Assembly (NCBI GenBank): GCA_044229355.1
Contig: JBGATF010000012.1
Location: 13,522 to 77,521, forward strand
DNA length: 64,000 nt
Source of the DNA: Limisphaerales bacterium
Lineage (GTDB): Bacteria > Verrucomicrobiota > Verrucomicrobiia > Limisphaerales > JADJPG01
Direction: 5' to 3'
Under the pieces are notes generated by a model, which saw only the letters and a program-made list of their open reading frames with translations, searched no databases and was not told the DNA's origin. This document shows, piece by piece, positions 7,114 through 32,558 of the stretch. The position numbers and the translations under genes were made by a program. The number at the start of each line of letters is the position of its first letter. The stretch's first letter is position 1.

Positions 7114-7127
7114 GGTGGAAGGCAAGG

Positions 7128-10903: not shown

Positions 10904-10940
10904 GATATGGTCATTGGCTTCGCATCCGGACGCTTCATGG

Positions 10941-13630: not shown

Positions 13631-13673
13631 GGGAGTTTTTCGAAGTGGGTGCAAGGGCCCATCGGGTTTCGGG

Positions 13674-15083: not shown

Positions 15084-15087
15084 GACG

Positions 15088-15678
15088 TCAGTCCGCCTCG
15101 TTGGTCCACACCGCCCAATAAGCGGGGCCGGTGTGATGACCAAAATACTTGTCCACAATCCCGCCCATGAAGAAGTCGTCCATCGGCAACTCGAGGGCCA
15201 TGCGGTGGCGCGCGCCGGCCCGGAATTGGCGGAGCGTGCCCCCGACCTGCTTGGCCCGATTGTCCGCCGCCTCCGCCCGCGGCTTCCACGGATTGTAGTG
15301 ACCCACGTAAATCGTGGCGCCGGGCGCGACCGCGCCGCGGTGCACCGCGACCACTTCGTATTTCAGAATCGTCGCGTAGTCATAAAGGTCCCGCTGGAAG
15401 ATCGCGCCGTCCGGTATCTCCACGAGCCGCGCGGTGACTTCCACGGTCCCGGCCGACTTGACCTGGACGTCCTCCCCGGCGTTCGACCCGGCCCCCGATC
15501 GTCGGTCGCAGGCCGTCAAGCCGCCCAGGATTCCAATCAGCATCAGGAGTGACGCGACGGCCCGCGCGGCGCCGGCTCCACTGCGAGCCAATCGGTTCGC
15601 TGGGTTGATGTGCGAAGCCTGGACAAAACGTGCGCGCCTGGAACGACGCATTTCCGGTTGCAAGTGGTCGTGAGTCAT
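15088..15678 (-). CDS. Hypothetical lipoprotein (first gene of the MBOAT module)
   Basis: Lipobox LMLIGILGGLTAC. No family recognised. Coding-like composition and tight spacing to the MBOAT gene. The start could be 15678 or MRRSRR at 15651. Confidence 0.65.
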   Translation of the reverse strand: MTHDHLQPEMRRSRRARFVQASHINPANRLARSGAGAARAVASLLMLIGILGGLTACDRRSGAGSNAGEDVQVKSAGTVEVTARLVEIPDGAIFQRDLYDYATILKYEVVAVHRGAVAPGATIYVGHYNPWKPRAEAADNRAKQVGGTLRQFRAGARHRMALELPMDDFFMGGIVDKYFGHHTGPAYWAVWTNEAD

Positions 15679-15706
15679 TGGGCAATTCGCGCTCGATCCC
15701 CGAAAC

Positions 15707-17787: not shown

Positions 17788-17811
17788 GGGGTCGGGCCGG
17801 CCGGGCCCGGT

Positions 17812-20706
17812 TTAGTAGTGCACGCGGATGGCATAGTGTCGATCGGTGGGATGCGGGATGCGCACCCACTCGCCCCCCGGGTCAAAGTCCCGCCAGTCCC
17901 CGCCGTTGATCTGGACGGACTTCATTTTGCTCGCACGCGCATGACGCAGCCGAATCCGCAGCGCCGACGGGCTGCGGCGCGCCGGCAGGTCAATGTCGGC
18001 CGAGAGTTCCCCATCCGCCGCGCGGCTGTCGATGCGGAACGACAGCGGTCCGAAATAGGTCGGGGCGTTCCGCACCACGATGTGCTGGCCGGGCTCGAGC
18101 CAGGCGCGAGGCGTGGCTTGCGCCAGCAAGAGCGTGTCGTCGTCCCGCTCGTCGATCAGCAGCCGGCGATAAAGCTCAAACCACGCGCCGTCCGTGCTCG
18201 GCGGGCCGAAATACTGCGGCCAGCCCCACCGATGCTCCACCGGCTCAAAAACCGTGTGGCTGAAGGCGCACGCCATCATGCTGTAAAAGGCGCGAATGGC
18301 CGCCTTGACCTCATCGCGCCGCAGATAGGCTGTGGCCTGCTGGTTGTAGACGGGCTCGTTGATCATGCCCCACTGACGAAGGAACAGGTTGTCCTCGTGG
18401 TCGTGCAGCATCGCGGTGGTCAGCGGTCCATGCGGGTCGAGCGCCTGCAGCCGGGAAAGATGCAACGGGCCCGTGTCCACATCCGTGGGATACCAGGCTG
18501 TGAACTGGCGTCCGGCGGATTGCGCATCGCAGGGTACGTACGGAGTCCAGGTGCCGTCGGCCAGGGGCACCGCCGGCGATCGCACGCTGGCCCGGCCAAA
18601 TTCCCGCTCGACAGCCTCGCGCAGCGTGCGCGCCGCAGCGCGGCATGACGCGGCGCGCGGATGTCCGATCTCCGCGAGCGCCCGGCCCAGCCGGTCGAGC
18701 CCCGCCACGAAATACGCCTGATTGAAGGCCCACGACCGCGGCGCATGCGAGAGATCGTTGAGCGGCGCCAGCACCAGGCCCGGCGTCGGATTGGGCGGGC
18801 GACCCGCCAGCTGGACCGCGTCCAGACACCAATCCAGGGCCCGCAGCGTGGGTGGCAACAAGCGTTCAAACGAGGCGCGATCGCCCGAGAGCAGAAAATG
18901 CTGCGCCACCGAGTAGAGCATGCCGGGAGTGTAGACGCCCCAGTTCGCAAAGCCGCCGATGTGGCCGTTCGCCTCCTGATTGTTGGCGAACATGATGGCG
19001 TGCTCCTCCGCCGAGAGGGCGTGATACCCGCGCAAATCATAGAGCATGTAGTCCACATACACCGACTGGTTGACGGGCCACGGCGTGCCCGTCTGGCCGT
19101 AGGCGAAGTTCGAGTAGGGAAGGTCCACTTTTACCCCGTTTGCATCTTCCCCATGACGTCGCGGCAGCCGCCGGGCATGCCAAAAGTTCGCGCGAAACAG
19201 AGTGTTGACGGCCGGGTCCGGCACCTCGAAGAAAGCGCCCCGAGCGAGGGCGTCATTCCAATAGTTCAGCGTCGCTTGCCGGCTGGCTTGGTAGTCGAGA
19301 GCCAGCAACGCCTCACGGTCACGCGGCTCCACCGCCGGCGAGGGCAGCCGCACGATCAGCTCCCGCGTGCCGCCGGCCGGCAGTCTGACGTTGAACTGGA
19401 TCTGCTGCCGCAGGGTCCCGCCCATTTTTGCATCGCCTGAAGGCGCTCGCGGCGACGGGAGGTTTTGGATGGTCGGAGCCGAGTCCGGCCCGTCGACCGC
19501 GAGCAGCGTCCGACCCGCGCCGTCTTCCCAAGCCATTCCACCAGGCCCGATCCGCAGCGTGCCCTCGCCGCGATCGACGGGCAAACCGCGCTCGTGTCCG
19601 AGACGAACCTCCACCGTTCGAGCCGAGCCCTGCCGCTCGCTGAGCTGCACTTTTTCCAGCAGCACCATTTGGAGATCACCGGCCCCTGCCGCAGGCGGAC
19701 CATGCAACGGATAGGCAAACTGCTCCACCTGACACCGCACGCCGTCCTTTTCGAAGGTCGTCAACATCACGGGCAGCCCGTCGGTCAATTGTTGCCCCCG
19801 CCACGCATTGGTCAGGCTTTGGGCAGCCTCGCCGAAATCAAACGACAGGGTAAACCGGTCCACCTTGCTTTCGTCATTGCGCACCCCCGCGAAGCGGTCC
19901 ACGCCAAATTTGTAGAGTGCGCTGTCCCAGGTCAGGCCCACAATGTGCCCCGGGGAAACGGCATTCGGATTCTGAAACGCCGCGCTGCCCATGTCCTCCC
20001 AGCGCCCGGCAAATTGCCGGTAGCTGGCCTCCGCGTCACGCTCCACCCGATCGAGCACGCGCTGCCCGCGCCGACCCTCGATCTTCGATAGATGTCCGGC
20101 CAGCGTCTCCGGCACTTCCCCCGCGGCCACAAACAAGTCCAGCTCCGGAAACCAAAACGACTTTTGTGAAACCAATTGATCCACGGTCAGGCGGAACCCG
20201 CGCGTCCCTTCCCCGTTGAGTTCGATCGCCACCTGGCGCGAGTCAGGCCGGTTGGCCGGATCCGCCTGCAGCCGCTGCGCGGCGCCGGCGTCACCAAATC
20301 TCCACAGGTATTTCCAGATGGAATGGACGTTGGCGATGTTCGTGATCGTGGCCGGCGCAAAGCGCAGGCGGCACGACAGCTCATCCACATCCCCTGCCCC
20401 GGCGATCGTTCGCGCAATCGAGCTTCCAGCTTCAAGCACGTCGGGCAGTTCAACGCCGTCCAGGTGTGCGTCGCCGACGCCCACCCCCAGGCCGACCAGC
20501 CTGACAAAGAACGGCCGGGCCACGGCCGAGCGATGGCCCCAGGAGATTCGCAAGGGAAGCGCCATTGACTTTGCGGGGGGGACCACGGCCGGAGCCTGCG
20601 CGACGGCCGGGCGTCCCAAGCCGAGCGTCATGGCCAGGATGATCGTGGCCATTCTGCGGGAAGGCCCGGCGGGCCTGACGGCGGTTCTCATGCCAGAAAG
20701 ACTCAT
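17812..20706 (-). CDS. Large secreted hypothetical protein (~960 aa), C-terminal half possibly (alpha/alpha)6-barrel glycosidase-like
   Basis: Long ORF with coding-like composition. Signal (possibly TAT-like) region PSRRMATIILAMTLGLGRPAVAQA. Candidate starts are 20706, 20691 and 20652. The C-terminal half has helical-repeat-like stretches (GMLYSVAQHFLLSGDRASFERLLPPTLRALDWCL; FNQAYFVAGLDRLGRALAEIG). No family recognised with certainty. Confidence 0.75.
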   Translation of the reverse strand: MSLSGMRTAVRPAGPSRRMATIILAMTLGLGRPAVAQAPAVVPPAKSMALPLRISWGHRSAVARPFFVRLVGLGVGVGDAHLDGVELPDVLEAGSSIARTIAGAGDVDELSCRLRFAPATITNIANVHSIWKYLWRFGDAGAAQRLQADPANRPDSRQVAIELNGEGTRGFRLTVDQLVSQKSFWFPELDLFVAAGEVPETLAGHLSKIEGRRGQRVLDRVERDAEASYRQFAGRWEDMGSAAFQNPNAVSPGHIVGLTWDSALYKFGVDRFAGVRNDESKVDRFTLSFDFGEAAQSLTNAWRGQQLTDGLPVMLTTFEKDGVRCQVEQFAYPLHGPPAAGAGDLQMVLLEKVQLSERQGSARTVEVRLGHERGLPVDRGEGTLRIGPGGMAWEDGAGRTLLAVDGPDSAPTIQNLPSPRAPSGDAKMGGTLRQQIQFNVRLPAGGTRELIVRLPSPAVEPRDREALLALDYQASRQATLNYWNDALARGAFFEVPDPAVNTLFRANFWHARRLPRRHGEDANGVKVDLPYSNFAYGQTGTPWPVNQSVYVDYMLYDLRGYHALSAEEHAIMFANNQEANGHIGGFANWGVYTPGMLYSVAQHFLLSGDRASFERLLPPTLRALDWCLDAVQLAGRPPNPTPGLVLAPLNDLSHAPRSWAFNQAYFVAGLDRLGRALAEIGHPRAASCRAAARTLREAVEREFGRASVRSPAVPLADGTWTPYVPCDAQSAGRQFTAWYPTDVDTGPLHLSRLQALDPHGPLTTAMLHDHEDNLFLRQWGMINEPVYNQQATAYLRRDEVKAAIRAFYSMMACAFSHTVFEPVEHRWGWPQYFGPPSTDGAWFELYRRLLIDERDDDTLLLAQATPRAWLEPGQHIVVRNAPTYFGPLSFRIDSRAADGELSADIDLPARRSPSALRIRLRHARASKMKSVQINGGDWRDFDPGGEWVRIPHPTDRHYAIRVHY

Positions 20707-20731
20707 GCTACGCGGCGACGCTTCGAGCCGG

Positions 20732-20770
20732 CCACACCACTCGCGCCAAAGACTGAACCGATCCCGCCAA
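20732..20770 (-). promoter_or_regulatory. Conserved 39-nt upstream element, copy B (before the 17812-20706 secreted-protein gene)
   Basis: Gene-direction sequence TTGGCGG GATCGGTTC AGTC TTTGGCGC GAGTG GTGTGG. It lies 26-64 nt upstream of candidate start 20706. Aligns without gaps to copies A and C. Confidence 0.45.
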
Positions 20771-20857
20771 CCTTGCGCGCGCGGATCCGGATCCGGCACC
20801 GGCTCCCGGTCGGCAGCCGTCCGCGATCCACGCCGCCCGGCAGGACCTGCGCGGCGG

Positions 20858-21973
20858 TCAATACTTCCGCACGCCCGCCTTCTGATAAAACTGCCGGACC
20901 TGGGCCCGCTCGTTCTCCAGCTCCAGCAGACCCAGCGAGCGCGTCATGTCGCCGATGGTCCGGCGGGCATCGTTGGACCAGAAAATTCCGCAGTCCTCAT
21001 CCTCGTAGTAGCGGAACCCGACCTTGTCGCCATAGGCTTTCCGGAAGGCCGCGCCATTTTGCAAGCGGGAGCTCCAGGGCAGAAGCGCGTAGCTCAGATC
21101 CAGCTCGTGGACGAGCATGCTTTGCGGCGGCTTGATCTGCGCCGCGATCTTGCCGGTCGGCTCGAAGATCGAGGCGTTGTGCCGCCACGTGCTGGAAACG
21201 ATGTAACATCGATGCGCCCGCGCACGGGAGGCCGGCTGCGACGTTTGTGGCGACTGGGTGGGCCAGACGATGAGCTCGGCCCCGCGCCGCTCCAGCTCCG
21301 CCCAGCCCTGGTCGAATTCCATGTCGTAACAGATTTGGATCCCCAGCTTGCCGAAGTCGCAATCGAACACCGGCAGGTCGTCGCCGGGCTGCGTGCCGCC
21401 TTCCATCGTCCCTCGGTCCAGGGCGACGACCAGATGCACCTTGCGATAGATTCCGATCGTCTCCCCCTGGCGCCCGACGAGCACGGCCGCATTGGAACAT
21501 CGTTTTCGCCCGGGCGTCTCCTGCAGATAAAGGGGCGCGACGATGTAGCAATGATGCTCGCGCGCCTTGCGCGCAAACGTCTCCTGGACGGGCCCGGCCC
21601 ACAACACCGCATGCGCCGGCGCGTCTCCGTCCGCCTCGCCCGTGATGGACGTCTCCGGCAGGACGGCGAGATCCAGGCCGCGCCCATGCGTCGCCTGCGC
21701 TTCCGCCGCCATTCGATCGACCATTCCCGCCAGCTGATCGAGGCGGTTGGACAAGCCCGGATACACACCCCAAAACGACTGCATCATGGTGCCGACGATC
21801 ACCTTTCGCGGCGGCAAATGGGAGGTCGATCTCCCGTGCGCTTCCGCCGCGACGCCCAGGCCACCCGCGATCACGGTGTGGGCGAAGAACGCGGCGGCGA
21901 CCCAACGCCACCGCGGATTGACGACGAAGCGGCGGCACCACGCACCGAAGAGGACTGAGAGCGTTCGTTTCAT
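20858..21973 (-). CDS. Carbon-nitrogen hydrolase (nitrilase superfamily) with N-terminal signal/anchor
   Basis: Glu-Lys-Cys triad contexts are DLAVLPETSITGE, GIYRKVHLV, LGIQICYDMEF. Hydrophobic N-terminus WRWVAAAFFAHTVIAGGLGVAA after ATG 21973 (MKRTLSV). Confidence 0.85.
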   Translation of the reverse strand: MKRTLSVLFGAWCRRFVVNPRWRWVAAAFFAHTVIAGGLGVAAEAHGRSTSHLPPRKVIVGTMMQSFWGVYPGLSNRLDQLAGMVDRMAAEAQATHGRGLDLAVLPETSITGEADGDAPAHAVLWAGPVQETFARKAREHHCYIVAPLYLQETPGRKRCSNAAVLVGRQGETIGIYRKVHLVVALDRGTMEGGTQPGDDLPVFDCDFGKLGIQICYDMEFDQGWAELERRGAELIVWPTQSPQTSQPASRARAHRCYIVSSTWRHNASIFEPTGKIAAQIKPPQSMLVHELDLSYALLPWSSRLQNGAAFRKAYGDKVGFRYYEDEDCGIFWSNDARRTIGDMTRSLGLLELENERAQVRQFYQKAGVRKY

Positions 21974-22153
21974 GTGGGAATGGCAAGGCACGCCGGAGCC
22001 TGACGGAAAGGCGGCCTTCTGGGAAGGCGAGACCGCCTCCCCTCCGCTCCCGCAGCGAGAGACGAGCGAGGGCGAAGCGCCGCGCTCAACAGCGCTGCAG
22101 CTACTGGTATCCCAAACTTATTGCCGGTCCCGAAAACTTAATTGGACCGAACT

Positions 22154-23173
22154 TCACGAGCCGAGAATCTTGCGCTGAAACGCGTCCAAATTTGGTTCGG
22201 TCACGGCCAGACGCAGGACATGGCGCAGTTCTTCCATCGACGTCAGCTTGTTCACATAGTCGGCGATGGCATCGGGCACCGGACCGAATCGAGCCACCAA
22301 CGCATCGAGCGCAGCCGTCCGTCCGCCCTCCAACCGCCCCGCCGCCTGCCCTAATGCTGCCCCCCTGGCCTCGCCACGAGCTTCACCGCGAGCTTCGCCT
22401 TCCCGCATGGCGATTCGTTCCAATGGCGTGATCAAATCCTTGATGGACATGGGCTGCACCGTAGCCGTCTCCGCACGGAACTTCAATTCCAAATCCTCCG
22501 GCAACTGCGTCAGAACGTGAATGACTTTCCACAATTCACGGGCTTCCTTCCGGTTCATGCCCAAGCCGGACAGTTTAGCCAGGTGGCTCAAAAGCCCGAA
22601 TCGCCCGCGATAACGCGCCTCCACATCCCGCACGGTCGTCAACGCCACCTGATGCGCCGCGATGATTAACGCAAACGGATTGCCTGTCCGCCGAAACACC
22701 CCCTCCGGATCCGCAAAATCAACAACCTTGAACATGGGGAACTCGAAGCACAGACGACAACCAGCGATCTCCGTCTCGTGCAGGCTCGGGCGCCACGCGG
22801 GATCGTCGTCAGCCAGCACCGCCAGGCTGATCACTGCCTCACCAAATTTGTCCAGTATGCGATAGAAATACGCGAACAACCGTCTCGCAAACTGGGCTTG
22901 CCGTTGAGCCTGCACCTCGACGTGGATGAACAGCCACTCGAACCGCCCGTCGGCCAGCCGAACCCTCACCAAGCGATCGACCGCCAGGACTCCGGGGCCA
23001 GGTTCCGTCCCCAACGCTTGCAACTCGGTATCAAGAAAGGTCGGGGCCTGCGTCCAATCGACCAGGTCGTGGACCGCGGGAAAGCACAACTCAAGAAACG
23101 GACGCAGGTAGATCTCAAGCGCGACCTTCCACGGCCCATCAAACTCATTGGCAACACCCTCCTTGTCAGGCAT
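22154..23173 (-). CDS. Rpn/YhgA-like recombination-promoting nuclease (PD-(D/E)xK putative transposase family) with DUF4351-like C-terminus
   Basis: N-terminal FDGPWKVALEIYLRPFLELCFP ... VDRLVRVRLADGRFEWLFIHVEVQ is typical of this family. The C-terminal helical region resembles DUF4351. Contains the in-frame repeat GEARGEARGEARG. Lies in a less GC-rich patch. Start taken at ATG 23173 (MPDKEG). Confidence 0.75.
   Translation of the reverse strand: MPDKEGVANEFDGPWKVALEIYLRPFLELCFPAVHDLVDWTQAPTFLDTELQALGTEPGPGVLAVDRLVRVRLADGRFEWLFIHVEVQAQRQAQFARRLFAYFYRILDKFGEAVISLAVLADDDPAWRPSLHETEIAGCRLCFEFPMFKVVDFADPEGVFRRTGNPFALIIAAHQVALTTVRDVEARYRGRFGLLSHLAKLSGLGMNRKEARELWKVIHVLTQLPEDLELKFRAETATVQPMSIKDLITPLERIAMREGEARGEARGEARGAALGQAAGRLEGGRTAALDALVARFGPVPDAIADYVNKLTSMEELRHVLRLAVTEPNLDAFQRKILGS
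22364..22399 (-). repeat. In-frame 12-nt tandem repeat x3 (GEAR GEAR GEAR) inside the Rpn-like gene
   Basis: Minus-strand codons ggc gaa gct cgc / ggt gaa gct cgt / ggc gag gcc agg, read directly from the sequence. Confidence 0.8.
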
Positions 23174-23433
23174 GCGGAATGGACGGTAGCGGGACGCCCT
23201 CGACTTGCCCAGCACTCTGTGGGATTCACAGGACCGCTGAAGTCCGCCTCGGGTGCGCTGGCATCGCTGCCAACGATTCGTTCTTCATTCGCGGCGGGCC
23301 GGCCACGATGCCGGCGCATCGAGGCAATATTCCTGCGCCGCCCTCAATCGTGGCCGAGCCGGCTCGAAACTATTTCTTGCAAATACAGGGCGCGAATCAA
23401 GGTTCCGTGCTTTCGAGCAACTTGGTTCCGACA

Positions 23434-25197
23434 ATGCGCCTCCGCCCTTTAATCCTAATTGCCTTGATGGCCCTGACCCACATCGCCTCGTCCAGCCCGG
23501 CCCAGAATACCCAGATGGGGGCAGATTCACCGTTGCTGCCCGGCACCCAACGGGCCCAGGCCGAAGTGCACGCGGCGCGGAGCTACGTTGATCGCAATCT
23601 TGTCGTTTCCACCTTCCAGGACGGTCGCTTCACCAATGGCGGCGCCCTGGGCTGCGGCTACGCCATCAGTCACGATGCCGGACTCACCTGGTCCCGCGGA
23701 ATCATCCCGGGCCTGACGGAGCTGACCGGCGGACCGTTCAAGCGGGCGACCGATCCGGTGGCGGCCATCGACCACGCTGGGAACATCTTTCTGGGCACCT
23801 ACGCGTTCACTCCCGGCGGTTCCGACGCGATGGCCGTCAGCAAATCAACCGATGGCGGCGCGACCTTCTCTGCCCCGGTCTTCGCCGTGACCAACGACGG
23901 CCGGATCTTCGCGCTGGACAAGAATTGGCTCACGGTGAACACGTTTCCGGGCTCGCCAACTTTCGGTCGGCTGGCCCTGAGCTGGACCAGCCTCTTTTAC
24001 GCAGCCGCATCCAACGGCGTCGTGGTCAGCGACGACGGCGGCAACTCCTGGACGAGGCCGCAATTCGTCGGCGCAAAACTGAGCCAGGCGACCCAGCCAC
24101 TGTTTCTGCCCGATGGGTCTCTCGCCATGTTCTATTGGAATTTTGACGGCAATCGTATCGAGTTTGTCAGGTCTGAAGACGGCGGGCTGACGTTCGCCCT
24201 TCCGACGATCGTCTTCGCCGTGCAGCGCTACGACGATCCCATCGCCCGCGGACTCGGCTTCGCACCGTCCGCGGCCGGCGACCGCCAGGCGGGCGTCGTC
24301 TACGTTTGCTGGCAGGGACGCACGGACGCGAACCCGGGCAGCCGGCCGTGCATTTTCTTCAGCCGATCCATTGACCAGGGAAAAACCTGGACCACACCCG
24401 TCGCAGTCAATGACACGCCCGACGCGCGCAGCGTGTTTATGCCCGCGCTGGCCGCGTCGCCCGATGGCCAGCACCTCACGGTCATCTTTTACGACAAACG
24501 CAACGATCCCGGGGCGGGCTACTTGGTGGACCTCTACCTCGCGGAATCGTTCGACGGCGGGCAAACCTGGCAGCCCAACGTCCGCCTGAGCGAGGTTTCA
24601 AGCGATTTGCGGGCCGCCCCGTTGACCGACCGCGGATATATGCTCGGCGACTACCAGGCGATCGTGCCCGCGCTGGACTTCGACTCGCCGGCGGTCGCCT
24701 GCTGGATCGACACGCGCAGCGGGAATCCGGACCCATTCGCCATGCAGATCCGCCGGCGCCGCGGCACATCCTTCGCAACGTGGAGAACGCTGCGCTTCTC
24801 TGCCACGGAAACAGGCGATGCCTCGATCGCCGGACCGGACGCCGATCCCGACGGCGACGGCATCCCCAATCTGGCCGAGTACGCCCACGGCCTTGAACCG
24901 CGACACGCGGACCCGGCTCCGCTTCACTACAAATCAGGGGTCACCACAACTGACCCGGCGGGCACACGCGCGGCCTTGCCCCTCTCCTACAACTATTCGC
25001 CCGTGCTGGATGACATCGCCTTCTCTTGGGTTGCCTCGGACGATCTGACGTTGTGGTCGCCCATCATGCCCGCAGAGCAGGCGTCGCAAGCCGGGGCCGA
25101 GTCGACGCTCCGATCGTTCGAGGCCCATTTCCCGATCGACGTGGACACGCCGTCGCGCGCCTACCGTCTGCAACTGAACCAGACCAATCGGGACTAG
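23434..25197 (+). CDS. BNR/Asp-box repeat sialidase-fold protein with TSP3-like calcium motif and C-terminal [FY]R[LV] module, secreted
   Basis: Signal MRLRPLILIALMALTHIASSSPA (ATG 23434; the upstream track extension is not credible). Six Asp-boxes: SHDAGLTW, STDGGATF, SDDGGNSW, SEDGGLTF, SIDQGKTW, SFDGGQTW. DADPDGDGIPNLAEY at 24838-24882. The protein ends ...SRAYRLQLNQTNRD. Confidence 0.85.
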   Translation: MRLRPLILIALMALTHIASSSPAQNTQMGADSPLLPGTQRAQAEVHAARSYVDRNLVVSTFQDGRFTNGGALGCGYAISHDAGLTWSRGIIPGLTELTGGPFKRATDPVAAIDHAGNIFLGTYAFTPGGSDAMAVSKSTDGGATFSAPVFAVTNDGRIFALDKNWLTVNTFPGSPTFGRLALSWTSLFYAAASNGVVVSDDGGNSWTRPQFVGAKLSQATQPLFLPDGSLAMFYWNFDGNRIEFVRSEDGGLTFALPTIVFAVQRYDDPIARGLGFAPSAAGDRQAGVVYVCWQGRTDANPGSRPCIFFSRSIDQGKTWTTPVAVNDTPDARSVFMPALAASPDGQHLTVIFYDKRNDPGAGYLVDLYLAESFDGGQTWQPNVRLSEVSSDLRAAPLTDRGYMLGDYQAIVPALDFDSPAVACWIDTRSGNPDPFAMQIRRRRGTSFATWRTLRFSATETGDASIAGPDADPDGDGIPNLAEYAHGLEPRHADPAPLHYKSGVTTTDPAGTRAALPLSYNYSPVLDDIAFSWVASDDLTLWSPIMPAEQASQAGAESTLRSFEAHFPIDVDTPSRAYRLQLNQTNRD

Positions 25198-27536
25198 CTC
25201 CCCAGCCTGTTGAAGGCGTCCGCCAGTCCGTTGCCAAAGCCCGGACGCGCCGGACGCGCCGATCCCTTCTGTTCGCGAGGGGCGCGCGGCGCCGCAGGAG
25301 CGCCCGGGGTCGCCCGCGGCGGGCGCGGAGCCAGGTCCGGCTTGGCCTTCATGGAGAGCGCGATGCGGCTGCGTTCGAGGTCCACCTCGACGACCGTGAC
25401 GTGGACCCGCTGCGCGACCTTCACGACCTCGGACGGATCCTTGACGAAGTGATCCGCGAGCTGGCTGACGTGGACGAGGCCATCCTGATGCACGCCAATG
25501 TCCACGAACGCGCCGAATGCGGTCACGTTGGTAACGATGCCGGGCAGCTTCATCCCCGGCTTGAGATCGCCTGGCTTCTCCACGCCGTCGGCGAACTTGA
25601 ACGCCTCGAACTGCTGGCGGGGATCCCGGCCCGGCTTGGTCAACTCGTCCAGAATGTCCTTGAGCGTCGGCAACCCGACACTTTCGGTCACGTATTGTTC
25701 CAGCTTGATGCGGGCGCGCAGGGACGGGTCGCGGACCAGGTCGCTGACGGTAGAGCCAAGGTCCGTCGCCATGCGTTCCACGATGGGATAACTTTCCGGG
25801 TGCACGGCGCTGGCATCCAGCGGATGTGTTGCGCCGCGAATGCGCAGAAAGCCGGCGGCCTGTTCAAAGGTCTTGTCGCCCAGACGCGGCACCTTCTTCA
25901 GCTCGGCGCGGGAGGTGAAGGCGCCGTGTTCATTACGGTACTTCACCAGATTCCCGGCGATGGTGGCGTTCAGGCCGGAGACATAACTCAGCAACTGGCG
26001 GCTGGCCGTGTTGACCTCGACGCCGACCCGGTTCACGCACGACGTCACGGTGTCGTCCAGCGCGTGCTTCAGCATCGTTTCGTCGACGTCATGTTGATAC
26101 TGGCCCACGCCAATGCTTTTGGGATCGATCTTCACCAATTCCGCCAGGGGATCCATCAGCCGGCGACCGATCGAGACCGCGCCGCGGACGGTCACGTCCT
26201 TGTCGGGAAATTCCTCGCGCGCCACGTCGGAGGCGGAGTAGATGGATGCGCCGCTTTCGTTGACCATCACGGTCACCAGGGTGCGCGGCAGTCCACACGC
26301 CGCGATGAACGCCTCGGTTTCGCGCGAGGCGGTTCCGTTGCCGATGGCGATCGCTTCAATCTGGAAATGGTCCACCAGCTTGAGCACGCGTTCCTTGGCC
26401 TGCCGAATCTGCAGCTCGGAGCCGGCGGTGGGATGAATCACATCATCAAAGAGCAGCTTTCCCTGCGCATCGAGCACCGCGAGTTTGCAGCCGGTGCGGA
26501 ACCCGGGATCGATGGCGAGGATGCGTTTCTGCCCGAGGGGCGCGGCGAGGAGGAGCTCCCGGATGTTTTCCGTGAAGACGCGGACGGCTTCGCGATCGGC
26601 GGCCAGCTTCGAGGTCATGCGCGCCTCGTTTTCCATGGAAGGCGAAAGCAGGCGCTTGTAAGCGTCGGCGCAGGCCAGCGTCACCTGGCCGCTGAGCGCG
26701 GTATTGCCCTTCACGAACCGGCCCGTGGCGATGGCGACGGCCGCATCGTCCGGCACCGTGACGCGCAGGAGCAAAAAGCCTTCCGCCTCGCCGCGGCGCA
26801 TGGCGAGCAACCGATGCGAGGGCACCTTGGCCAGCGGCTCGGACCATTGGAAATAGTCGCGGAACTTCGCTGCCTCGGGGTCGCCTTCCTTGGTGATGAA
26901 CAGCTTGCTGCCAATCACGGCCTCCCGCTCAAACAAACTGCGCACGGCCTTGCGGGTTTCCGCATCGTCGCTGACGCGTTCGGCGATGATGTCCCGCGCG
27001 CCGGCCAGCGCCTCGTCCACGGTCGGGACAGCCTTGTCCTGATCATCGCTCTGGACCAGGAACCGGGCTGCTTCCGCCAAAAGGTCGAGCGCCTGTTCCT
27101 GCCCGCCCAGGATCCAGTCGGCGAGCGGTTCGAGCCCTTTCTCCTTCGCGATCGTGGCCCGGGTGCGGCGCTTGGGGCGATAGGGCGCGAAGAGATCTTC
27201 GAGAACCGTCATGGTCTGGGCCGCCGCCAACGCCTGGCGCAGCTCCGGGGTGAGCAGCTTGCGTTCGTCGAGCGATTTCAGGACGGCGGCGCGTCTTGCT
27301 TCCAGTTCGGCCAGCTGCGACAGGCGATCCCGGATGGCGGCGATGGCGACTTCGTCGAGCGATCCCGTCGCTTCCTTGCGGTAGCGGGCGATGAACGGCA
27401 CGGTGGCCCCGTCGGCCAACAGCCGAGCGGTGCTGGCCACGCCGGACGTGGGAAGCTTCAACTCAACTGCGATTCGGGAGACGAAACCGGCGCCGGCCTG
27501 ACCGGCCTCACTGGCGCTGTGTGATGATGAACTCAT
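25194..27536 (-). CDS. tex: Tex-like transcription accessory protein (S1 RNA-binding, YqgF/RuvX-like and HhH domains)
   Basis: N-terminal ARLLADGATVPFIARYRKE, central ILAIDPGFRTGCK (YqgF-like), C-terminal S1 domain GMKLPGIVTNVTAFGAFVDIGVHQDGLVHVSQL. Start taken at ATG 27536. Confidence 0.95.
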   Translation of the reverse strand: MSSSSHSASEAGQAGAGFVSRIAVELKLPTSGVASTARLLADGATVPFIARYRKEATGSLDEVAIAAIRDRLSQLAELEARRAAVLKSLDERKLLTPELRQALAAAQTMTVLEDLFAPYRPKRRTRATIAKEKGLEPLADWILGGQEQALDLLAEAARFLVQSDDQDKAVPTVDEALAGARDIIAERVSDDAETRKAVRSLFEREAVIGSKLFITKEGDPEAAKFRDYFQWSEPLAKVPSHRLLAMRRGEAEGFLLLRVTVPDDAAVAIATGRFVKGNTALSGQVTLACADAYKRLLSPSMENEARMTSKLAADREAVRVFTENIRELLLAAPLGQKRILAIDPGFRTGCKLAVLDAQGKLLFDDVIHPTAGSELQIRQAKERVLKLVDHFQIEAIAIGNGTASRETEAFIAACGLPRTLVTVMVNESGASIYSASDVAREEFPDKDVTVRGAVSIGRRLMDPLAELVKIDPKSIGVGQYQHDVDETMLKHALDDTVTSCVNRVGVEVNTASRQLLSYVSGLNATIAGNLVKYRNEHGAFTSRAELKKVPRLGDKTFEQAAGFLRIRGATHPLDASAVHPESYPIVERMATDLGSTVSDLVRDPSLRARIKLEQYVTESVGLPTLKDILDELTKPGRDPRQQFEAFKFADGVEKPGDLKPGMKLPGIVTNVTAFGAFVDIGVHQDGLVHVSQLADHFVKDPSEVVKVAQRVHVTVVEVDLERSRIALSMKAKPDLAPRPPRATPGAPAAPRAPREQKGSARPARPGFGNGLADAFNRLGS

Positions 27537-27665
27537 GTTGATGATGCGACGAACGCGCATCCATTAACCGAGTCGCTCACCGCTGCCAATGGGAGAAGTT
27601 TCCGCGACGGCGAGTAATGCACTTGACTCGAATCTCCGTGCCCACGCGATCCGAGCTTCAACGCG

Positions 27666-27693
27666 GCCGCCGAAGGCCGAAGCCTTCGGCGGC
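27666..27693. other. Perfect 12-bp stem hairpin (GCCGCCGAAGGC-CGAA-GCCTTCGGCGGC) in the tex / DUF4082-gene intergenic region
   Basis: Read directly from the sequence. No U-tract on either strand, so function (terminator, RNA stabiliser or protein site) is open. Confidence 0.3.
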
Positions 27694-27790
27694 GCATCCT
27701 CCCGTTCAACCTCAGACCGGCCGGGGCCGGACGCGGGCGGACGGCGTGCTGGGCGCAGGCACGGCGAAGCGATTTCGGCGGGCCAGGTCC

Positions 27791-27823
27791 GGATGAACGC
27801 GGCGCGCGGCATCGCGTTCATCC
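27791..27823 (-). terminator. Hairpin (11-bp perfect stem GGATGAACGCG / CGCGTTCATCC, 11-nt loop) about 10 nt after the stop of the DUF4082 gene
   Basis: Position immediately 3' of the stop at 27834-27836 and a perfect stem. It lacks a U-tract, so intrinsic-terminator status is uncertain. Confidence 0.4.
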
Positions 27824-27833
27824 CGCGGCGAGT

Positions 27834-30800
27834 TCAAAACCGTCGCACTCGATAGAACGAACTGTTTTCCGCCGGTGCCGCCAGGCCGTCGGAGAAATTG
27901 CAGACCGTATTGGTTCCACTGGCGCTGGCCGTGGTGACCGCCCAATTGTTCAACCGATCCACCGTGCTCTGTTCCGAGCGAAAGGCATACTCGGTCGCCA
28001 CCGTCAGCTCGCCGCCGCCAGCCGGGGTGACAAATACCGAGTAGCTGTGAGCCACGACGTTGACCGCGATTCGAAAATGATACGTCACGTTGGCGGCGTA
28101 GGGGATGACCGCGTCGGCCGCATAGATGCCGGCTTTGCGGGCATCGATGTTTCCGTCGGTGTTGAATCGCACAAGACATGCGAATCCGCTGAAGGCGGTT
28201 TGCGGGCCGGACGACAGGGCCATGACGCTATCGATGGGGGAGGCCGAGGGCGTCGCGTCGAACTGCACGGTGAAATCATCCGTGCGCTCGGCCATGGCGC
28301 GGTTGAACCAGGCGCCGCCGGGCGGCGCCACGACACAGCGCTCCGTCCCGCTGTCACTCAACGCCCCGACGTCGGTGTATTCATGGCTGGACAACAGACC
28401 GCTCAGGGGAAGGAACGGCCCGTTGACCGATCGCGACTTCATCACCTGGAATTGGTCCAGGCCACCTTCCCAGCGGAGCACGATGCTCGCCGTGGCCCGC
28501 TCGGCCCGGACTTCGGTCAGGCGGACCGGCACGACGGACGCCGGCGGATCGCCATACACGATGTCGTCGACCAGCAGGTCGCCGGCAAAGCTCGTGAACT
28601 CCAGCGTCACTTGCGGAGCCGCTGTCGACCAGTCCGTCACGACCAACGCCGGGGCTCCGGATCCCTCGAAGGTTCCGCTGCGCTCCGGGTTCACGCCGTC
28701 CCGCAAGGTCCAGGTCCCGCCGGACAGCGAACTCAACCGCACGGCTTTGAGCACCTTGCCGGCGGGCAGCGTCCACGTGCCGACCGGGGTCGAGTAGGCG
28801 CCGCTCTGGTTCAATCCGCCCAGATCGACAAATCCCGACCAGGAGCCACTGCCGAAATCGATGCCGCCATGAACCCCGTCGAGGATGAAAAAGTCCGCCG
28901 TGACGTCCTCAAATCGATAAGTGCTGTCACCCGCCTCGGTGCTCGGAACGAACACGACATCCCGCCCGTAGTCGCCGTGGTTGAAGCTGGCGGTGGGCCG
29001 GCCATCGCGCGTCTCGGTGAATTTGCCGGCGTCGATCGGATACGACAGGTTGCGCCCGTTGTTCCCGCCGGACGCCATGTCGGCGAGGTTCGGATAATTG
29101 CGCTGCGGGCTGGTGCCCACGGAGATGGCGACGGTGTAGTCCACCTCGGCCTCGAGGTCGACATCCAGAATGTCGAGCTCGATCCAGCCGGTGACGCCGC
29201 CGTAGTTCCAGACATAGGGGCCGCCAATCACGGCGTTGTCGCTGTTGCGCCACAGCCGGGCCGTGTGATCCCCGGACTCCGAGGCGAGGGAATAGACGCG
29301 CAGGTGCGTGACCTTCCCGGCAACCGCCGGGCGGAAGACCGTCCCCAGTTCGTAGTAGGAGCCGTCAAAATTGATGTCTCCGAGCGTTTTGGTGTCCGGG
29401 AAGAGCGATTCGGCCGGCGGAGCCGAAGGCACGAACACGACGTCACGGCCGTAATTGCCGTGGTTGAAACTCGAGTTCGGGCGGGCGTCCCTGGATTCGG
29501 TGAACTTACCGGCGTCAACCGGATACGAAAGGTTCAACCCGTTGTTCCCGCCGGCGGCGAGATTCGGGAGGTTCGGGTAGTTCCGCTGCGGGCTGGTCCC
29601 CGTGGAAATGGACACCGTGTAATCGACGTTGGGTTCGATATCCACATCGAGAATGTCGAGTTCGATCCAGCCGGTGACGCCGCCGTAATTCCAGACATAC
29701 GGGCCGCCGATCACCGCGTTGTCGCTGTTGCGCCAGAGCCGCGCCGTGTGATCCCCGGATTCCGCGGCCAGCGAGTAGACCCGCAGGTGGGTAATCTTGC
29801 CCGCCACCGCGGATCGGAACACCGTTCCCAGCTCGTAGGCGGTTCCGTCGAAATTGATGTCGCCAAAAACCATCGTGTCCGGAAAGAGCGACTCCCGCCC
29901 CGCGGCCACGCCTCCGCCCTGCACGGTAAAGGTGTAAGGGGCTTCCGTGGAATCGTTGTTGGCCATCGACACGCTCGCGGTGCGCAAGCCGCGGCCCGTC
30001 GGATCGAAGCGCACGGTGAACGCGGCCGTGCCGCCGGGCGCAATGGGTGACGTCGGCTGGGTCACCACCGTGAAATCAGCGGCCTGGCCCCCGCCGACCA
30101 AAACCTTGGGGTTGCCGGTCAGGTTCAACGGCGCGTCGCCGGCGTTGGTGATGACGAACGTGCTGTCTTGAAATCCGCTCCCCACGCTCAGGCTGCCAAA
30201 GAAGGTGCCGTCGAGCAGGGACGCGCTCGCGTCGCCGGCCACGATCAGCTTGCCGCGGCCACGCACGTCCATCTCCGGCCCGGACGCCGTGGCCAGCGGG
30301 GCGCCCTCGGCATAGAGGCAGTAGGTGCGCTCCGCCGAGTCCCCCGTGCCCACCGTCATCGCGATCGGATCGGGAAACGCGCCCCCCGTGGCGGAGAAGG
30401 CGTAGCTTCCCAACGAATAACTGCCGAAGGTGTCCGCCACCACGCGGGCCCCGGGCGTGTCGGCCCAGATGACCAGCCAATAGAAATCGCCGCCGGTGAG
30501 ATCCAGCGGGGCCGTCAATGGAAACGAATTCCAGCCGTTCGTGGCGTTGAGCACCGGCAGGCTCTCGCGCAGGAGATGGTCGGCGACACCCGCATTGTCG
30601 GCGTAAACGGCGCACTTGAACGTTCCCGCCAGCTCCAAGACCTTGGCTTCGATTTGCGAAATCCGCAGACCCACCGGCGCGCGAAACCGATTGCCGTGGA
30701 TCGACGCGGCGTCGATGTTGCGCGAGAAGGAGCCCTCGCTGTCGTTGCCGATCACTCCGGCGCCGCCGCCGAGATCCGCCGCCGACAGCCTCGGCCCGGC

Positions 30801-30935
30801 AACGAGAACGCCGGCCAGCGCCACGGCACGGAGCCACGCGGCCACGGGTGTCAATCGATGAAGGAGCCGCGCGCCCGGGCAGGGCGGCACGCGATCGGCA
30901 CGAACTTCGGCGGGAGAGTCAGGTGGTGTGTTCAT
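27834..30935 (-). CDS. Secreted 1033-aa protein with two tandem DUF4082 domains, Ig-like/FN3-like modules and a C-terminal jelly-roll-like domain ending FYRVRRF
   Basis: Signal region AVALAGVLVAGPRLSAA. Two ~160-aa units ESLFPDT..GDINFDG..YELGTVFR..VAGK[IV]THLRVYSLA.ESGDHTARLWRNSDNAVIGGPYVWNYGGVTGWIELDILDVD match the DUF4082 pattern as I remember it. ATG at 30935. Confidence 0.85.
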   Translation of the reverse strand: MNTPPDSPAEVRADRVPPCPGARLLHRLTPVAAWLRAVALAGVLVAGPRLSAADLGGGAGVIGNDSEGSFSRNIDAASIHGNRFRAPVGLRISQIEAKVLELAGTFKCAVYADNAGVADHLLRESLPVLNATNGWNSFPLTAPLDLTGGDFYWLVIWADTPGARVVADTFGSYSLGSYAFSATGGAFPDPIAMTVGTGDSAERTYCLYAEGAPLATASGPEMDVRGRGKLIVAGDASASLLDGTFFGSLSVGSGFQDSTFVITNAGDAPLNLTGNPKVLVGGGQAADFTVVTQPTSPIAPGGTAAFTVRFDPTGRGLRTASVSMANNDSTEAPYTFTVQGGGVAAGRESLFPDTMVFGDINFDGTAYELGTVFRSAVAGKITHLRVYSLAAESGDHTARLWRNSDNAVIGGPYVWNYGGVTGWIELDILDVDIEPNVDYTVSISTGTSPQRNYPNLPNLAAGGNNGLNLSYPVDAGKFTESRDARPNSSFNHGNYGRDVVFVPSAPPAESLFPDTKTLGDINFDGSYYELGTVFRPAVAGKVTHLRVYSLASESGDHTARLWRNSDNAVIGGPYVWNYGGVTGWIELDILDVDLEAEVDYTVAISVGTSPQRNYPNLADMASGGNNGRNLSYPIDAGKFTETRDGRPTASFNHGDYGRDVVFVPSTEAGDSTYRFEDVTADFFILDGVHGGIDFGSGSWSGFVDLGGLNQSGAYSTPVGTWTLPAGKVLKAVRLSSLSGGTWTLRDGVNPERSGTFEGSGAPALVVTDWSTAAPQVTLEFTSFAGDLLVDDIVYGDPPASVVPVRLTEVRAERATASIVLRWEGGLDQFQVMKSRSVNGPFLPLSGLLSSHEYTDVGALSDSGTERCVVAPPGGAWFNRAMAERTDDFTVQFDATPSASPIDSVMALSSGPQTAFSGFACLVRFNTDGNIDARKAGIYAADAVIPYAANVTYHFRIAVNVVAHSYSVFVTPAGGGELTVATEYAFRSEQSTVDRLNNWAVTTASASGTNTVCNFSDGLAAPAENSSFYRVRRF
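28935..29897 (-). repeat. Tandem intragenic duplication (2 x ~483 nt) encoding the two DUF4082 units
   Basis: For example, 29221 gccgccaatcacggcgttgtcgctgttgcgccacagccgg... versus 29704 gccgccgatcaccgcgttgtcgctgttgcgccagagccgc..., an offset of 483 nt. High but imperfect nucleotide identity by eye; the protein units are near-identical in the core. Confidence 0.85.
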
Positions 30936-31150
30936 ACAGCGACGGAGCTTGTTAGGTTTTTGAGGTTTTCAAGCCAGCTCGATCATGCGTGCAACGAAGG
31001 CAGCCGGGGGGACGGCCCGGCCAAGACGGAAGCGGTGAGCGGCGGGAAGGGATTCGCGGAAGCCGGGAGGCAACATCCGCAGCACGATCGGCAGGCGTCA
31101 TGAACGGTGTCTTGATGCTCGCCAGCCTGCCGGGAAGGCGCGCGACGGAT

Positions 31151-31189
31151 CTACACGGCTTGCGCCAAAGTGTGAACCGATCCCGCCAA
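31151..31189 (-). promoter_or_regulatory. Conserved 39-nt upstream element, copy A (before the DUF4082 gene, in the divergent region shared with the AraC gene)
   Basis: Gene-direction sequence TTGGCGG GATCGGTTC ACAC TTTGGCGC AAGCC GTGTAG. It lies about 215-255 nt upstream of ATG 30935. Confidence 0.45.
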
Positions 31190-31298
31190 GGACCGACATC
31201 CGGCTTGCACCCATTCGCGCCCGCGCTAAAGAAGAGGCGTTCGCCCGGGCCGCTGTCGCCTGGTTTCGCCCGGGCGCTCGTGACCGCACCGCTGACCT

Positions 31299-32165
31299 GT
31301 GGACGATTTCGAACAACTCAACGCGCTGCCGGGGTTGCGCCGGCTCTTCGACCTCGCCTGGCGCACGTTTGGCGTCAACCCCGCCCTCGTCTCGCCCGAT
31401 GGCGCGCGCACCGTCGTCTTCGAGCGCGAGCGCCGGGCCCAGCCGTTCTGCCAGGCGCTGCAAGCCTGCCCCGGCGGACCGGAACTCTGCGCCATCTGCG
31501 ACAAAACCAAATTCCTCGAGGCGCGCCGCGACTCGGTTCCGGTGCGCTACCGGTGCCACGCCGGCCTGACCGAGTTCCTCATCCCCATCATCCGCCGGGG
31601 CCAGGTCATCGCGCTGCTGCAATGCGGCCAGGTGCACGACCGCGTCCCCACCGACGCGGAATGGCGGGCCGCACGCCGCTCGCTGGTGGCGGCCGGCATT
31701 GCCTCCCGCGCCCTGCAACGCCAGTTTCGGCAGAACCGCGTGCTGACCGCCGATCGCCAGGACGACCTGCTTGACCTGATGGAGTTGATCGCCGCCCGGC
31801 TGGCACACTCCGACGAACGCGAGTTGCCGACCGCCCCGGGACGCACCCAGGTCTGTTTGGGCCGGGCCATGACCTACATCGAGGCCCACCTCTCCCAGCG
31901 CCTGACGCTGGAGGCCATCGCCCGCGCAGCCGGCCTTTCGCCGCGGTCCCTCATGCGACTGTTTCGCCGCGAAGCCAGCGTCAGTGTGGTGGATTTCATC
32001 CAGCAGCGCCGGATTACGCACGCCTGCCGCCTCCTGCGGGAAACGGACCAGACCTGCGCCGAGATCGCCTTCGCGTGCGGCTTCGGCAGCGTCCAACATT
32101 TCAACCGGATCTTCCGCCGCTTCGAGAGCGCCGCCCCCTCGGACTGGCGGACCGCGGCGCACTGA
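31299..32165 (+). CDS. AraC-family transcriptional regulator with N-terminal PocR sensory domain
   Basis: PocR-like Cys-rich region (FCQALQACPGGPELCAICD ... YRCHAGLTEFLIPIIRRGQVIALLQCGQV). C-terminal double HTH (LTLEAIARAAGLSPRSLMRLFRRE; CAEIAFACGFGSVQHFNRIFRRF). GTG start at 31299. Confidence 0.9.
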   Translation: MDDFEQLNALPGLRRLFDLAWRTFGVNPALVSPDGARTVVFERERRAQPFCQALQACPGGPELCAICDKTKFLEARRDSVPVRYRCHAGLTEFLIPIIRRGQVIALLQCGQVHDRVPTDAEWRAARRSLVAAGIASRALQRQFRQNRVLTADRQDDLLDLMELIAARLAHSDERELPTAPGRTQVCLGRAMTYIEAHLSQRLTLEAIARAAGLSPRSLMRLFRREASVSVVDFIQQRRITHACRLLRETDQTCAEIAFACGFGSVQHFNRIFRRFESAAPSDWRTAAH

Positions 32166-32186
32166 CCCGCCGCACAGTCGCAAATG

Positions 32187-32212
32187 GTAGGGCGCGCTCT
32201 CCGCAGCGCGCC
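32187..32212 (+). repeat. REP-like element: GTAG + perfect 8-bp palindrome (GGCGCGCT-ctccgc-AGCGCGCC), 22 nt after the AraC stop
   Basis: Read directly from the sequence. It could also serve as the terminator hairpin of the AraC gene (no clear U-tract). Confidence 0.4.
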
Positions 32213-32332
32213 GTCTGCGCCGTCCGCTTTCATCGTCCCCTCCACCTTTCTGCCGATCGTAACTGGCGAACACGGTCGGCTCCCGTTTTCGGCGGCGGGC
32301 GGCGGCCGTGCCCGGCCGTAGCTCTGAGCGAA

Positions 32333-32352
32333 GGCGGGAGCGCCCGCCCTAC
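32333..32352 (-). repeat. REP-like element in inverse orientation: GTAG + 6-bp palindrome (GGCGGG-cgct-CCCGCC)
   Basis: The minus-strand reading is GTAGGGCGGGCGCTCCCGCC. It shares the GGTAGGGCG..GCGCTC..CCGC head with the element at 32187. The forward strand also starts GTAGCTCTGAGCG at 32318. Confidence 0.4.
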
Positions 32353-32416
32353 CAGGCGTGCTTCCAACCTCGTTCTCCTGAGATTTTCACCAGGAAACAG
32401 GCAGAGCAGCAGACCC

Positions 32417-32455
32417 TTGTCGTGATCGGTTCGCCTTTTGGCGGAACTCGTGTAG
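32417..32455 (+). promoter_or_regulatory. Conserved 39-nt upstream element, copy C (before the giant DUF4082-LTD-CotH gene)
   Basis: TTGTCGT GATCGGTTC GCCT TTTGGCGG AACTC GTGTAG. It lies about 104-142 nt upstream of GTG 32559. By my hand alignment, 27 of 39 positions are identical in all three copies. Confidence 0.45.
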
Positions 32456-32558
32456 CGCCCAATGCCATTGTGGAGTAAAGAAAAGCCGGTTCGCGGTCGG
32501 CGGCCGCTCGTTCGAAGGGCCGGCTTCTCCACCGCGCCGTCGTTCATCGCAGACGTTC

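Follow-up and report, generated by a model that had tools for sequence, protein, structure and literature searches.

Sugar and glycan regulons are the commonest use of AraC-family transcription regulators, and members of this family act as class-II activators at the promoters pBAD, Pm and PrhaBAD. At pBAD of Escherichia coli, the araI1 and araI2 half-sites span about -72 to -35, overlapping the -35 region, and the araC promoter lies in the same intergenic region. The binding site of XylS reads TGCA-N6-GGNTA-N6-TGCA-N6-GGNTA, that of MekR reads CACC-N5-CTTCAA-N6-CACC-N5-CTTCAA, and that of AraC reads TAGC-N7-TCCATA, while MtlR protects two similar 15-bp blocks at the PmtlE promoter of Pseudomonas fluorescens, from -72 to -58 and from -50 to -36 (PMC4514859). 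Here we analyzed a stretch of 64,000 nucleotides (nt) from a Limisphaerales bacterium (phylum Verrucomicrobiota, contig JBGATF010000012.1), hereafter called the window, in which a 39-nt element is found three times, each time pointing into the gene of a large secreted protein. Two of the copies flank a gene for a regulator with a PocR sensor domain and an AraC-family DNA-binding domain. Comparative genomics and the layout of the element suggest that it is probably the binding site of this adjacent regulator.

Copy A (TTGGCGGGATCGGTTCACACTTTGGCGCAAGCCGTGTAG) is located on the minus strand at 31151-31189, in the gap between the regulator gene (31299-32165, plus strand) and the divergent gene of a DUF4082 exoprotein, into which it is aimed; its distal half-site covers 31173-31189 and its proximal half-site covers 31151-31168. 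Copy B (TTGGCGGGATCGGTTCAGTCTTTGGCGCGAGTGGTGTGG, 20732-20770, minus strand) is aimed into the gene of a putative glycosidase-like protein and the presumed operon behind it. Copy C (TTGTCGTGATCGGTTCGCCTTTTGGCGGAACTCGTGTAG, 32417-32455, plus strand) is found 252 nt past the regulator stop codon and is aimed into the gene of a DUF4082-LTD-CotH giant exoprotein. These sequences and coordinates reproduce exactly those given in a first-pass annotation of the window, and the gapless alignment of the three copies yields the same count of 27 invariant positions out of 39. When 100 nt of flank were added to the alignment on each side, the similarity dropped sharply at both borders, and the flanks are unrelated. 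A degenerate 39-mer pattern has no match in the 64-kb window besides these three and none in 100 dinucleotide-preserving shuffles, and the core GATCGGTTC-N4-TTTGGCG has three exact occurrences in the window. We also built a position weight matrix (PWM) from 44 distinct instances of the element (described below), with which copies A, B and C score 56, 49 and 50 bits, respectively, versus a maximum of 1.2 bits in the shuffles. The earlier claims that copies A and C flank the regulator gene and that every copy is co-oriented with the gene downstream are borne out by the Pfam-checked gene positions, and the Pfam domains agree with the identities that had been assigned to the DUF4082 protein, the PocR-AraC regulator and the DUF4082-LTD-CotH protein.

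The first-pass annotation had also listed two weaker look-alikes, one before an ankyrin gene (38617-38626) and one before a BNR gene (23397-23425). The best PWM scores there are -27 bits (near 38617) and -50 bits (near 23397), and we do not regard them as sites. The gene called ankyrin is a 234-aa open reading frame (ORF) at 37895-38599 on the minus strand. Single half-site matches occur at 11728, 16620 and 52675, all within coding regions.

The consensus of the 44 distinct 39-mers is wTGGCGcGATCcGTTCA-nnn-tTTGGCGcAAg-nn-GTGTAG. Its grammar can be written as TGGCG-N6-GTTCA-N5-TGGCG-N6-GTGTA(G), that is, two bipartite half-sites forming a direct repeat with a spacing of 21 bp, or two helical turns. 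Positions 2-17 and 23-38 align at this 21-nt offset; both halves carry TGGCG with little or no variation and have GT..A in common. Each half-site can thus be read as one unit of the repeat TGGCG-N6-GT(T/G)(C/T)A, in which two 5-nt boxes are separated by N6 inside a 17-nt half-site. The simpler direct repeat TTG[GT]CG-N15-TTGGCG, noticed earlier in the window, was found in the 21-nt register as described. The same boxes are present in the instances collected through the regulator gene, which are free of search-pattern bias.

Most instances also contain GATC at positions 8-11 of the 39-mer, and position 11 is C in 39 of the 44. In the window, positions 8-11 correspond to 31179-31182, 20760-20763 and 32424-32427. 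GATC inside the distal half-site is a potential Dam-type methylation site in the operator.

The genomic contexts of eight regulator homologues (L004, L005, L007, L008, L010, L012, L014 and L049) were scanned with the PWM. All eight contain the element upstream of the regulator gene and on the opposite strand, in the divergent arrangement orthologous to copy A. The boxes hardly change from one context to the next, in contrast to the regulators, whose identity has dropped to 59-76%. A second copy directly past the regulator stop codon is strong in L004 and L014 and weak in L010 (26.5 bits) and L049 (29.5 bits), and the contexts that carry an LTD-CotH giant have this second copy. In L005 and L008, the regulator gene is divergent from the DUF4082 gene, which is followed by the gene of a ~950-aa protein (the family of the glycosidase-like protein behind copy B), an N_methyl pseudopilin-like gene, PD40 and MBOAT. 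The window differs in that the DUF4082 gene and the ~950-aa gene are kept apart by unrelated genes (Tex, a BNR protein and CN_hydrolase); the DUF4082/~950-aa operon of relatives such as L008 is split there, and its second half has a copy of its own, copy B. A similar situation is seen in L010, where the DUF4082-like gene is reduced to a truncated 165 aa and the ~950-aa gene has its own element copy (L010 9300). In L012 (Opitutaceae), the element is found ahead of an ADH_N-MR_MLE-RraA-PIG-L-SSF operon, whose gene types are those at the far end of the ~950-aa-headed cluster in the window, L047 and L049.

L049, a 1.17-Mb contig, encodes two tandem PocR-AraC paralogues and has elements at 8694-8732 (minus strand), 9877-9915 (minus strand) and 10896-10934 (plus strand). 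The two copies facing target genes score 41.7 and 29.5 bits. The copy stranded between the paralogues has no target gene and is aimed into the 3' end of paralogue 1; it scores 4.7 bits, having kept the distal half and lost GTGTAG. On the other side, no element is found at the ~950-aa orthologues in Pirellulaceae (L046), Sedimentisphaerales (L048) and another Verrucomicrobiia genome (L047), where the best PWM scores are below 0. Therefore, the element is not intrinsic to that gene or its leader.

Searches with the motif alone led to the same genes. A scan of species-representative genomes with the 20-base core GATCGGTTC-N4-TTTGGCG-N6-GTGT returned three loci, one of which is a true homologue: L001, a Verrucomicrobiae metagenome-assembled genome with three copies in 8 kb, standing before PEP-CTERM and Laminin_G_3 exoprotein genes. 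The other two, in L002 (Solibacteraceae) and L003, are likely chance matches, as they agree with the 20 bases of the pattern but not with the terminal TAG and apparently lie in coding sequence. A scan of metagenomes with TGGCNNGATNNGTTCNNNNNNTGGCNNNNNNNGTGTAG returned 30 contigs, in which we then looked for the regulator by tblastn. The regulator is also encoded on at least 16 of the 30; the 5' end of the element is 55-61 nt from the regulator ATG in 11 contigs, and in 5 contigs the distance from the regulator stop codon to the start of the element is 10-13 nt. The remaining contigs are mostly fragments of 1-3 kb, and at least six of these carry the element in front of a gene of the ~950-aa family.

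Wherever the sequence suffices, all 45 unique instances are co-oriented with the downstream ORF, and these ORFs recurrently belong to three families that can be recognized by their N-terminal marks: the DUF4082 protein (...GGGAGVIGND...; L004, L007, L010, L014, L021, L027, L030 and L044), the ~950-aa protein (...ITWGHRS...; L010, L017, L019, L023, L026, L034, L036, L039 and L049) and the DUF4082-LTD-CotH giant (...SLFP.SKTGNDSGPEG...; L004, L014, L016, L018, L021, L027 and L038). The first-pass annotation had named a dispersed repeat with no bias in position or orientation as the finding that would speak against a regulatory role. In the ~0.42 Mb of DNA examined, copies are found solely at the 5' ends of this specific gene set, and all of them are co-oriented.

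At L028 2805-2843 (minus strand) and L041 3093-3131 (plus strand), a variant of the element that is richer in AT scores 34 bits. It stands 329 nt ahead of the gene for a prepilin (type IV leader) peptidase, on a contig with no regulator nearby. This variant may be relevant given the N_methyl pseudopilin-like genes in the regulon operon of relatives, but it could also have arisen by chance or by decay.

The element might instead be bound by a different transcription factor encoded elsewhere, such as a direct-repeat-binding response regulator, with the PocR-AraC gene being just a member or neighbor of the regulon. Regulators of the OmpR/PhoB type also use direct repeats at helical-turn spacing, and some copies (copy B in the window, L001 and L034) are far from any regulator gene. 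Against this, the element flanks the regulator gene in nearly every genome sampled, at distances fixed within a few nucleotides, and these loci have no other conserved regulator gene. Furthermore, two 5-nt boxes separated by N6 in a 17-nt half-site are the signature of AraC domains with two helix-turn-helix motifs. We therefore consider a different factor unlikely.

The position of the element relative to the core promoter was analyzed with the 45 instances. Only two columns downstream of the element are conserved, an A at +22 (37 of 45) and a T at +26 (36 of 45). Correspondingly, nAnnnT starting at +21 is present in 33 of the 45 instances, and at any other offset from +1 to +54 it is present in at most 11. 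More than 20 different hexamers fit nAnnnT (for example TAGAAT, TAAAAT, CATACT, GATACT and CAATCT), in all three gene families, and two more come from the L049 sites, which have CAATTT at +21 and GATAGT at +22. Positions 2 (A) and 6 (T) are the most conserved positions of the sigma-70 -10 box. With nAnnnT assumed at -12 to -7, the element would extend from about -71 to -33. The bases in the -35 slot, which overlaps the proximal half-site, would then be TAGCCn and resemble TTGACA poorly.

For the window, this spacing predicts three promoters. In front of the DUF4082 gene, the predicted -10 box is CAGGCT (31124-31129, minus strand, +22 to +27 after copy A), with a start at ~31117. In front of the glycosidase-like gene and its presumed operon, it is TAGCAT (20705-20710, minus strand, +22 to +27 after copy B), with a start at ~20698. 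In front of the giant gene, it is TAAAGA (32476-32481, plus strand, +21 to +26 after copy C), with a start at ~32488; this is the weakest of the three, having the A at position 2 and lacking the T at position 6. The start predicted at ~20698 is downstream of the ATG at 20706, which would therefore be excluded as a start codon, and the NCBI gene call of 959 aa from the ATG at 20691 agrees with it. A consensus sigma-70 scan found no canonical -35/-10 promoter around copies A and C, which is consistent with activator dependence and as expected for it, without being positive evidence. We note that the leaders of the LTD-CotH giants share GTcGTTTGAAGcC at +32 to +44 after the element, right at the predicted transcription start, in L004 (10949-10961), L014, L016, L018, L021, L027 and L038; it is missing after copy C in the window. 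This sequence could be an initial transcribed sequence or a leader motif.

The same promoter geometry bears on whether the element could itself be a promoter of an alternative sigma factor of the extracytoplasmic function (ECF) type, with (C)GTTC(A) as the -35 box, GTGTAG as the -10 box, and the AraC gene as a mere conserved neighbor. GTTC (positions 13-16) and GTGTAG (positions 34-39) are invariant or nearly so, their 17-nt spacing fits such a promoter, the 3' border at GTGTAG is sharp, and Verrucomicrobia encode many ECF sigma factors. However, a sigma factor would have no need of the internal 21-nt direct repeat, in which TGGCG occurs twice, and the separate nAnnnT at a fixed +21 would be superfluous. 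The AAC motif common in ECF -35 boxes is missing here. In addition, the cognate sigma and anti-sigma genes, which are autoregulated, usually adjoin an ECF promoter, but neither the Pfam-scanned ORFs of the window nor the genes called in the regulator-anchored loci include a sigma or anti-sigma gene; it is the AraC gene that stays at fixed distances from the element. An ECF promoter is thus quite improbable in our view.

A sigma-54 (-24/-12) promoter in the proximal half, with TGGCGC-N5-GTGT resembling TGGCAC-N5-TTGC, is very improbable: the GG doublet of TGGCGC is correctly spaced to the G at -12, but position 37, where the GG-N10-GC pattern requires its C at -12, is occupied by T in all 44 distinct instances, the conserved neighborhoods contain no AAA+ enhancer-binding protein, and the fixed nAnnnT at +21 suits sigma-70 instead. 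That a short conserved repeat with several copies per genome might be a transcribed RNA motif (a leader or small RNA) or a dispersed repeat resembling repetitive extragenic palindromic (REP) sequences or miniature inverted-repeat transposable elements (MITEs) is hardly credible here, as there are 0 Rfam matches at the gathering threshold, folding z-scores of -1.1, +1.3 and +1.1, no inverted repeat within the element, a conserved direct-repeat sequence without compensatory change, a predicted transcription start downstream of the element, and copies confined to gene starts as described above.

Binding by the adjacent PocR-AraC regulator thus remains our favored explanation. The first-pass annotation had described the element as the operator or promoter of a small regulon controlled by this regulator, acting as a dimer on half-sites 21 bp apart, and comparative genomics together with the site grammar support this description. 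The supporting evidence consists of the co-inheritance with rigid geometry, the same three co-oriented gene families, the bipartite half-sites and the fixed -10-like spacing. We would refine "operator or promoter" to a predicted activator site that overlaps the weak -35 of a sigma-70-type promoter. In the mechanism we propose, one regulator subunit would occupy each half-site, its two helix-turn-helix motifs each reading one of the two boxes, which are one helical turn apart. The regulator would recruit RNA polymerase by class-II activation, for which AraC-family regulators show the same geometry at pBAD, Pm and PrhaBAD. The class-II reading is suggested because the element would be fixed at about -71 to -33, with a recognizable -10 box and a weak -35 box overlapping the proximal half-site. 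Activation would be controlled by a small molecule sensed by the PocR domain, and three transcription units would be driven in this way in the window: the DUF4082 exoprotein gene, a run of 12 genes, and the DUF4082-LTD-CotH giant gene.

Several points weigh against this explanation. The assignment of the site to the regulator comes from co-localization and co-inheritance, and the sampled instances are phylogenetically related. The pattern used to collect the metagenome instances prescribes 21 positions, and this inflates the information content of the PWM there. The -10 candidates in the window are 1 nt further out (copies A and B) or lack the final T (copy C), and GTTC and GTGTAG, 17 nt apart, are readable as the -35 and -10 boxes of an alternative sigma factor. 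That the regulator would activate, and not repress, is deduced from the geometry. Binding, dimer stoichiometry, transcription starts and the ligand are likewise what we infer from the sequence.

A broader reading, which we regard as possible but doubtful, is that the element and the regulator form a rigid master switch throughout Verrucomicrobiota. This switch would control the DUF4082/LTD/CotH giants at the cell surface, the (alpha/alpha)6 glycosidase-like family, polysaccharide O-acetylation (MBOAT/ALGX) and a non-phosphorylative deoxy-sugar (fucose-like) pathway, and its signal would be a metabolite of the pathway, for example a diol or an aldehyde, sensed by the cysteine-rich PocR domain.

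The regulator is a protein of 288 aa, with Pfam matches to PocR (4.9e-22) and HTH_18 (5.7e-26) as well as to the HTH_AraC domain, and it is presumed to be the element-binding protein. Of its 261 homologues, the best 120 have full-length identities of 59-100%, and they carry the names Verrucomicrobiota, Chthoniobacteraceae, Opitutaceae, Limisphaerales and Verrucomicrobiales. Orthology to PocR, the pdu/cob regulator, was considered and rejected (112 bits to the NCBIfam PocR equivalog versus a cut-off of 500), and no pdu, cob or microcompartment genes were found in the window or the related loci. The sensor half and the DNA-binding half are equally conserved (0.77 versus 0.76), which makes the comparison between them uninformative. 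Several cysteines in the PocR sensor domain, at residues ~50-90 (FCQ..., LC.ICD and RYRCHAGL), are invariant in 120 homologues, which suggests a metal or redox center or a conserved ligand pocket.

The regulator gene is predicted to have a promoter of its own at 31205-31232 on the plus strand, with TTGCAC (31205-31210) as the -35 box, a spacer of 16 nt, and TAAAGA (31227-31232) as the -10 box. In most loci, the ~60 nt that separate the element from the regulator ATG contain CTTGC(n) and, 16-18 nt further on, TAnnnA/T. The promoter of the regulator and the regulated promoter at copy A would thus be arranged back-to-back, and because of this arrangement autoregulation is possible. Downstream of the regulator gene, the spacer between its stop codon and copy C (32166-32416) measures 252 nt in the window versus 10-13 nt in relatives, and it contains a GC-rich hairpin at ~32192-32214 (GGCGCGCT...AGCGCGCC) without a T-run.

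The product of the gene behind copy A (27834-30935, minus strand) is a DUF4082/Ig-like exoprotein of 1033 aa according to Pfam, with a signal-peptide-like N-terminus. Copy C is followed by the gene (32559-37925, plus strand) of a giant exoprotein of 1788 aa, in which Pfam identifies DUF4082, LTD, CHB_HEX, CotH and Ig domains. Behind copy B is the gene of a conserved secreted protein (17812-20691, minus strand) of 959 aa by the NCBI gene call; the ORF extends to 20706 with the earlier ATG. This protein was previously labeled a 960-aa orphan, and it has no match in sequence searches of Pfam, NCBIfam and PDB. The orphan label does not hold, as the protein has 582 homologues at E≤1e-10, and the best 120 of the 582 are 51-67% identical, the window's own protein aside. 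Members of the family are found in Verrucomicrobiota and Planctomycetota, with occasional fusion to GH39 or GHL6. An AlphaFold2 model of the protein (predicted local distance difference test score, pLDDT, 83; predicted template modeling score, pTM, 0.85) has an (alpha/alpha)6 barrel that is preceded by one beta-sandwich and followed by a second, C-terminal one. With this model, Foldseek finds GH94 phosphorylases, GH95, GH65, GH116 and GH15, with E-values of ~1e-13 and template modeling (TM) scores of 0.45-0.53. Assuming that the model is correct, we read the protein as a putative secreted glycosidase-like enzyme of an undescribed family, which may be an undescribed CAZy-type family.

Eleven co-directional genes are located behind this gene (3499-17869, minus strand). 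According to Pfam, their order is PD40 propeller, a 196-aa protein, MBOAT, GFO_IDH_MocA, ALGX, GH2, Amidohydro_2, ADH_N, MR_MLE, Lactamase_B and RraA-like, and the same gene set and order are found in L047 and L049. The 12 co-directional genes (17 kb), including the glycosidase-like gene, are presumed to form one operon because they are co-directional and their ORFs overlap or abut. The combination of a dehydrogenase, a lactonase, an enolase-superfamily dehydratase and an aldolase would fit the pattern of non-phosphorylative deoxy-sugar (e.g. L-fucose) catabolism, a reading that rests on established pathway knowledge. The presence of fucose-type pathway genes alongside polysaccharide O-acetylation genes is an unusual combination. 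Two other giant secreted proteins are encoded in the window, a 2225-aa M36 fungalysin-type peptidase with Big_7 (43378-50055, minus strand) and a 1179-aa Big_7/P_proprotein/Ig protein (38731-42270, plus strand). Neither has the element, and they are therefore outside the regulon.

Transcriptional regulation in Verrucomicrobiota is almost unexplored. Our literature search found no description of the element and no work with DUF4082 or PocR-type regulators in Verrucomicrobiota as its subject, only passing mentions. The element and its regulator would be a new example of a well-known gene switch, here for secreted-protein and sugar-breakdown genes that soil Verrucomicrobia share; the mechanism is the textbook one of the AraC/XylS family, which extends known biology and does not change it. 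The element may serve as a regulon marker that ties the DUF4082 exoproteins, the LTD-CotH giants and the Pfam-less glycosidase-like family (more than 580 members) to a sugar-acid catabolic pathway. It also yields specific, inexpensive predictions that experiments on binding and transcription starts could address, and a candidate pair of inducible promoter and regulator for a phylum without genetic tools. If the reading as a master switch is true, it would give the first functional handle on DUF4082 proteins and LTD-CotH giants, and on how the abundant soil Verrucomicrobia choose which glycan to forage.

Among the described systems, PocR of Salmonella enterica, the pdu/cob regulator that senses 1,2-propanediol, has the same domain layout as the regulator in the window, an N-terminal PocR domain followed by a C-terminal AraC-type double helix-turn-helix. 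The two are not orthologues, however, and the targets here are unrelated to pdu/cob or microcompartments. AraC at araI1-araI2 of pBAD resembles our locus in the divergent arrangement of regulator gene and regulated operon and in half-sites that form a direct repeat, and the araC promoter shares the intergenic region much as the predicted regulator promoter does here. The sensor domain is different, and our locus has a second copy just past the regulator stop codon, which would drive the downstream gene; neither a distal O2-like site nor evidence for looping, as in the AraC system, was found here. MtlR at PmtlE is likewise an activator of the AraC/XylS type, with a footprint that abuts or lies just upstream of the -35 region, at nearly the same coordinates as those inferred for the element. 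It differs in sequence and sensor domain, and its site was mapped experimentally, whereas the site here is predicted. XylS at the Pm promoter of the Pseudomonas putida TOL plasmid differs in the sequence of the boxes, in having the XylS effector domain in place of a PocR-type sensor, and in serving aromatic catabolism rather than exoprotein and glycan/sugar-acid targets, and the system here is predicted from sequence in Verrucomicrobiota. The layout of the XylS site is nevertheless alike, with a 4-5 nt box, N6, a 5-nt box and N5-6 repeated in a 21-bp register, and the proximal site, which reaches the -35 region in the XylS system, is predicted to do so here.

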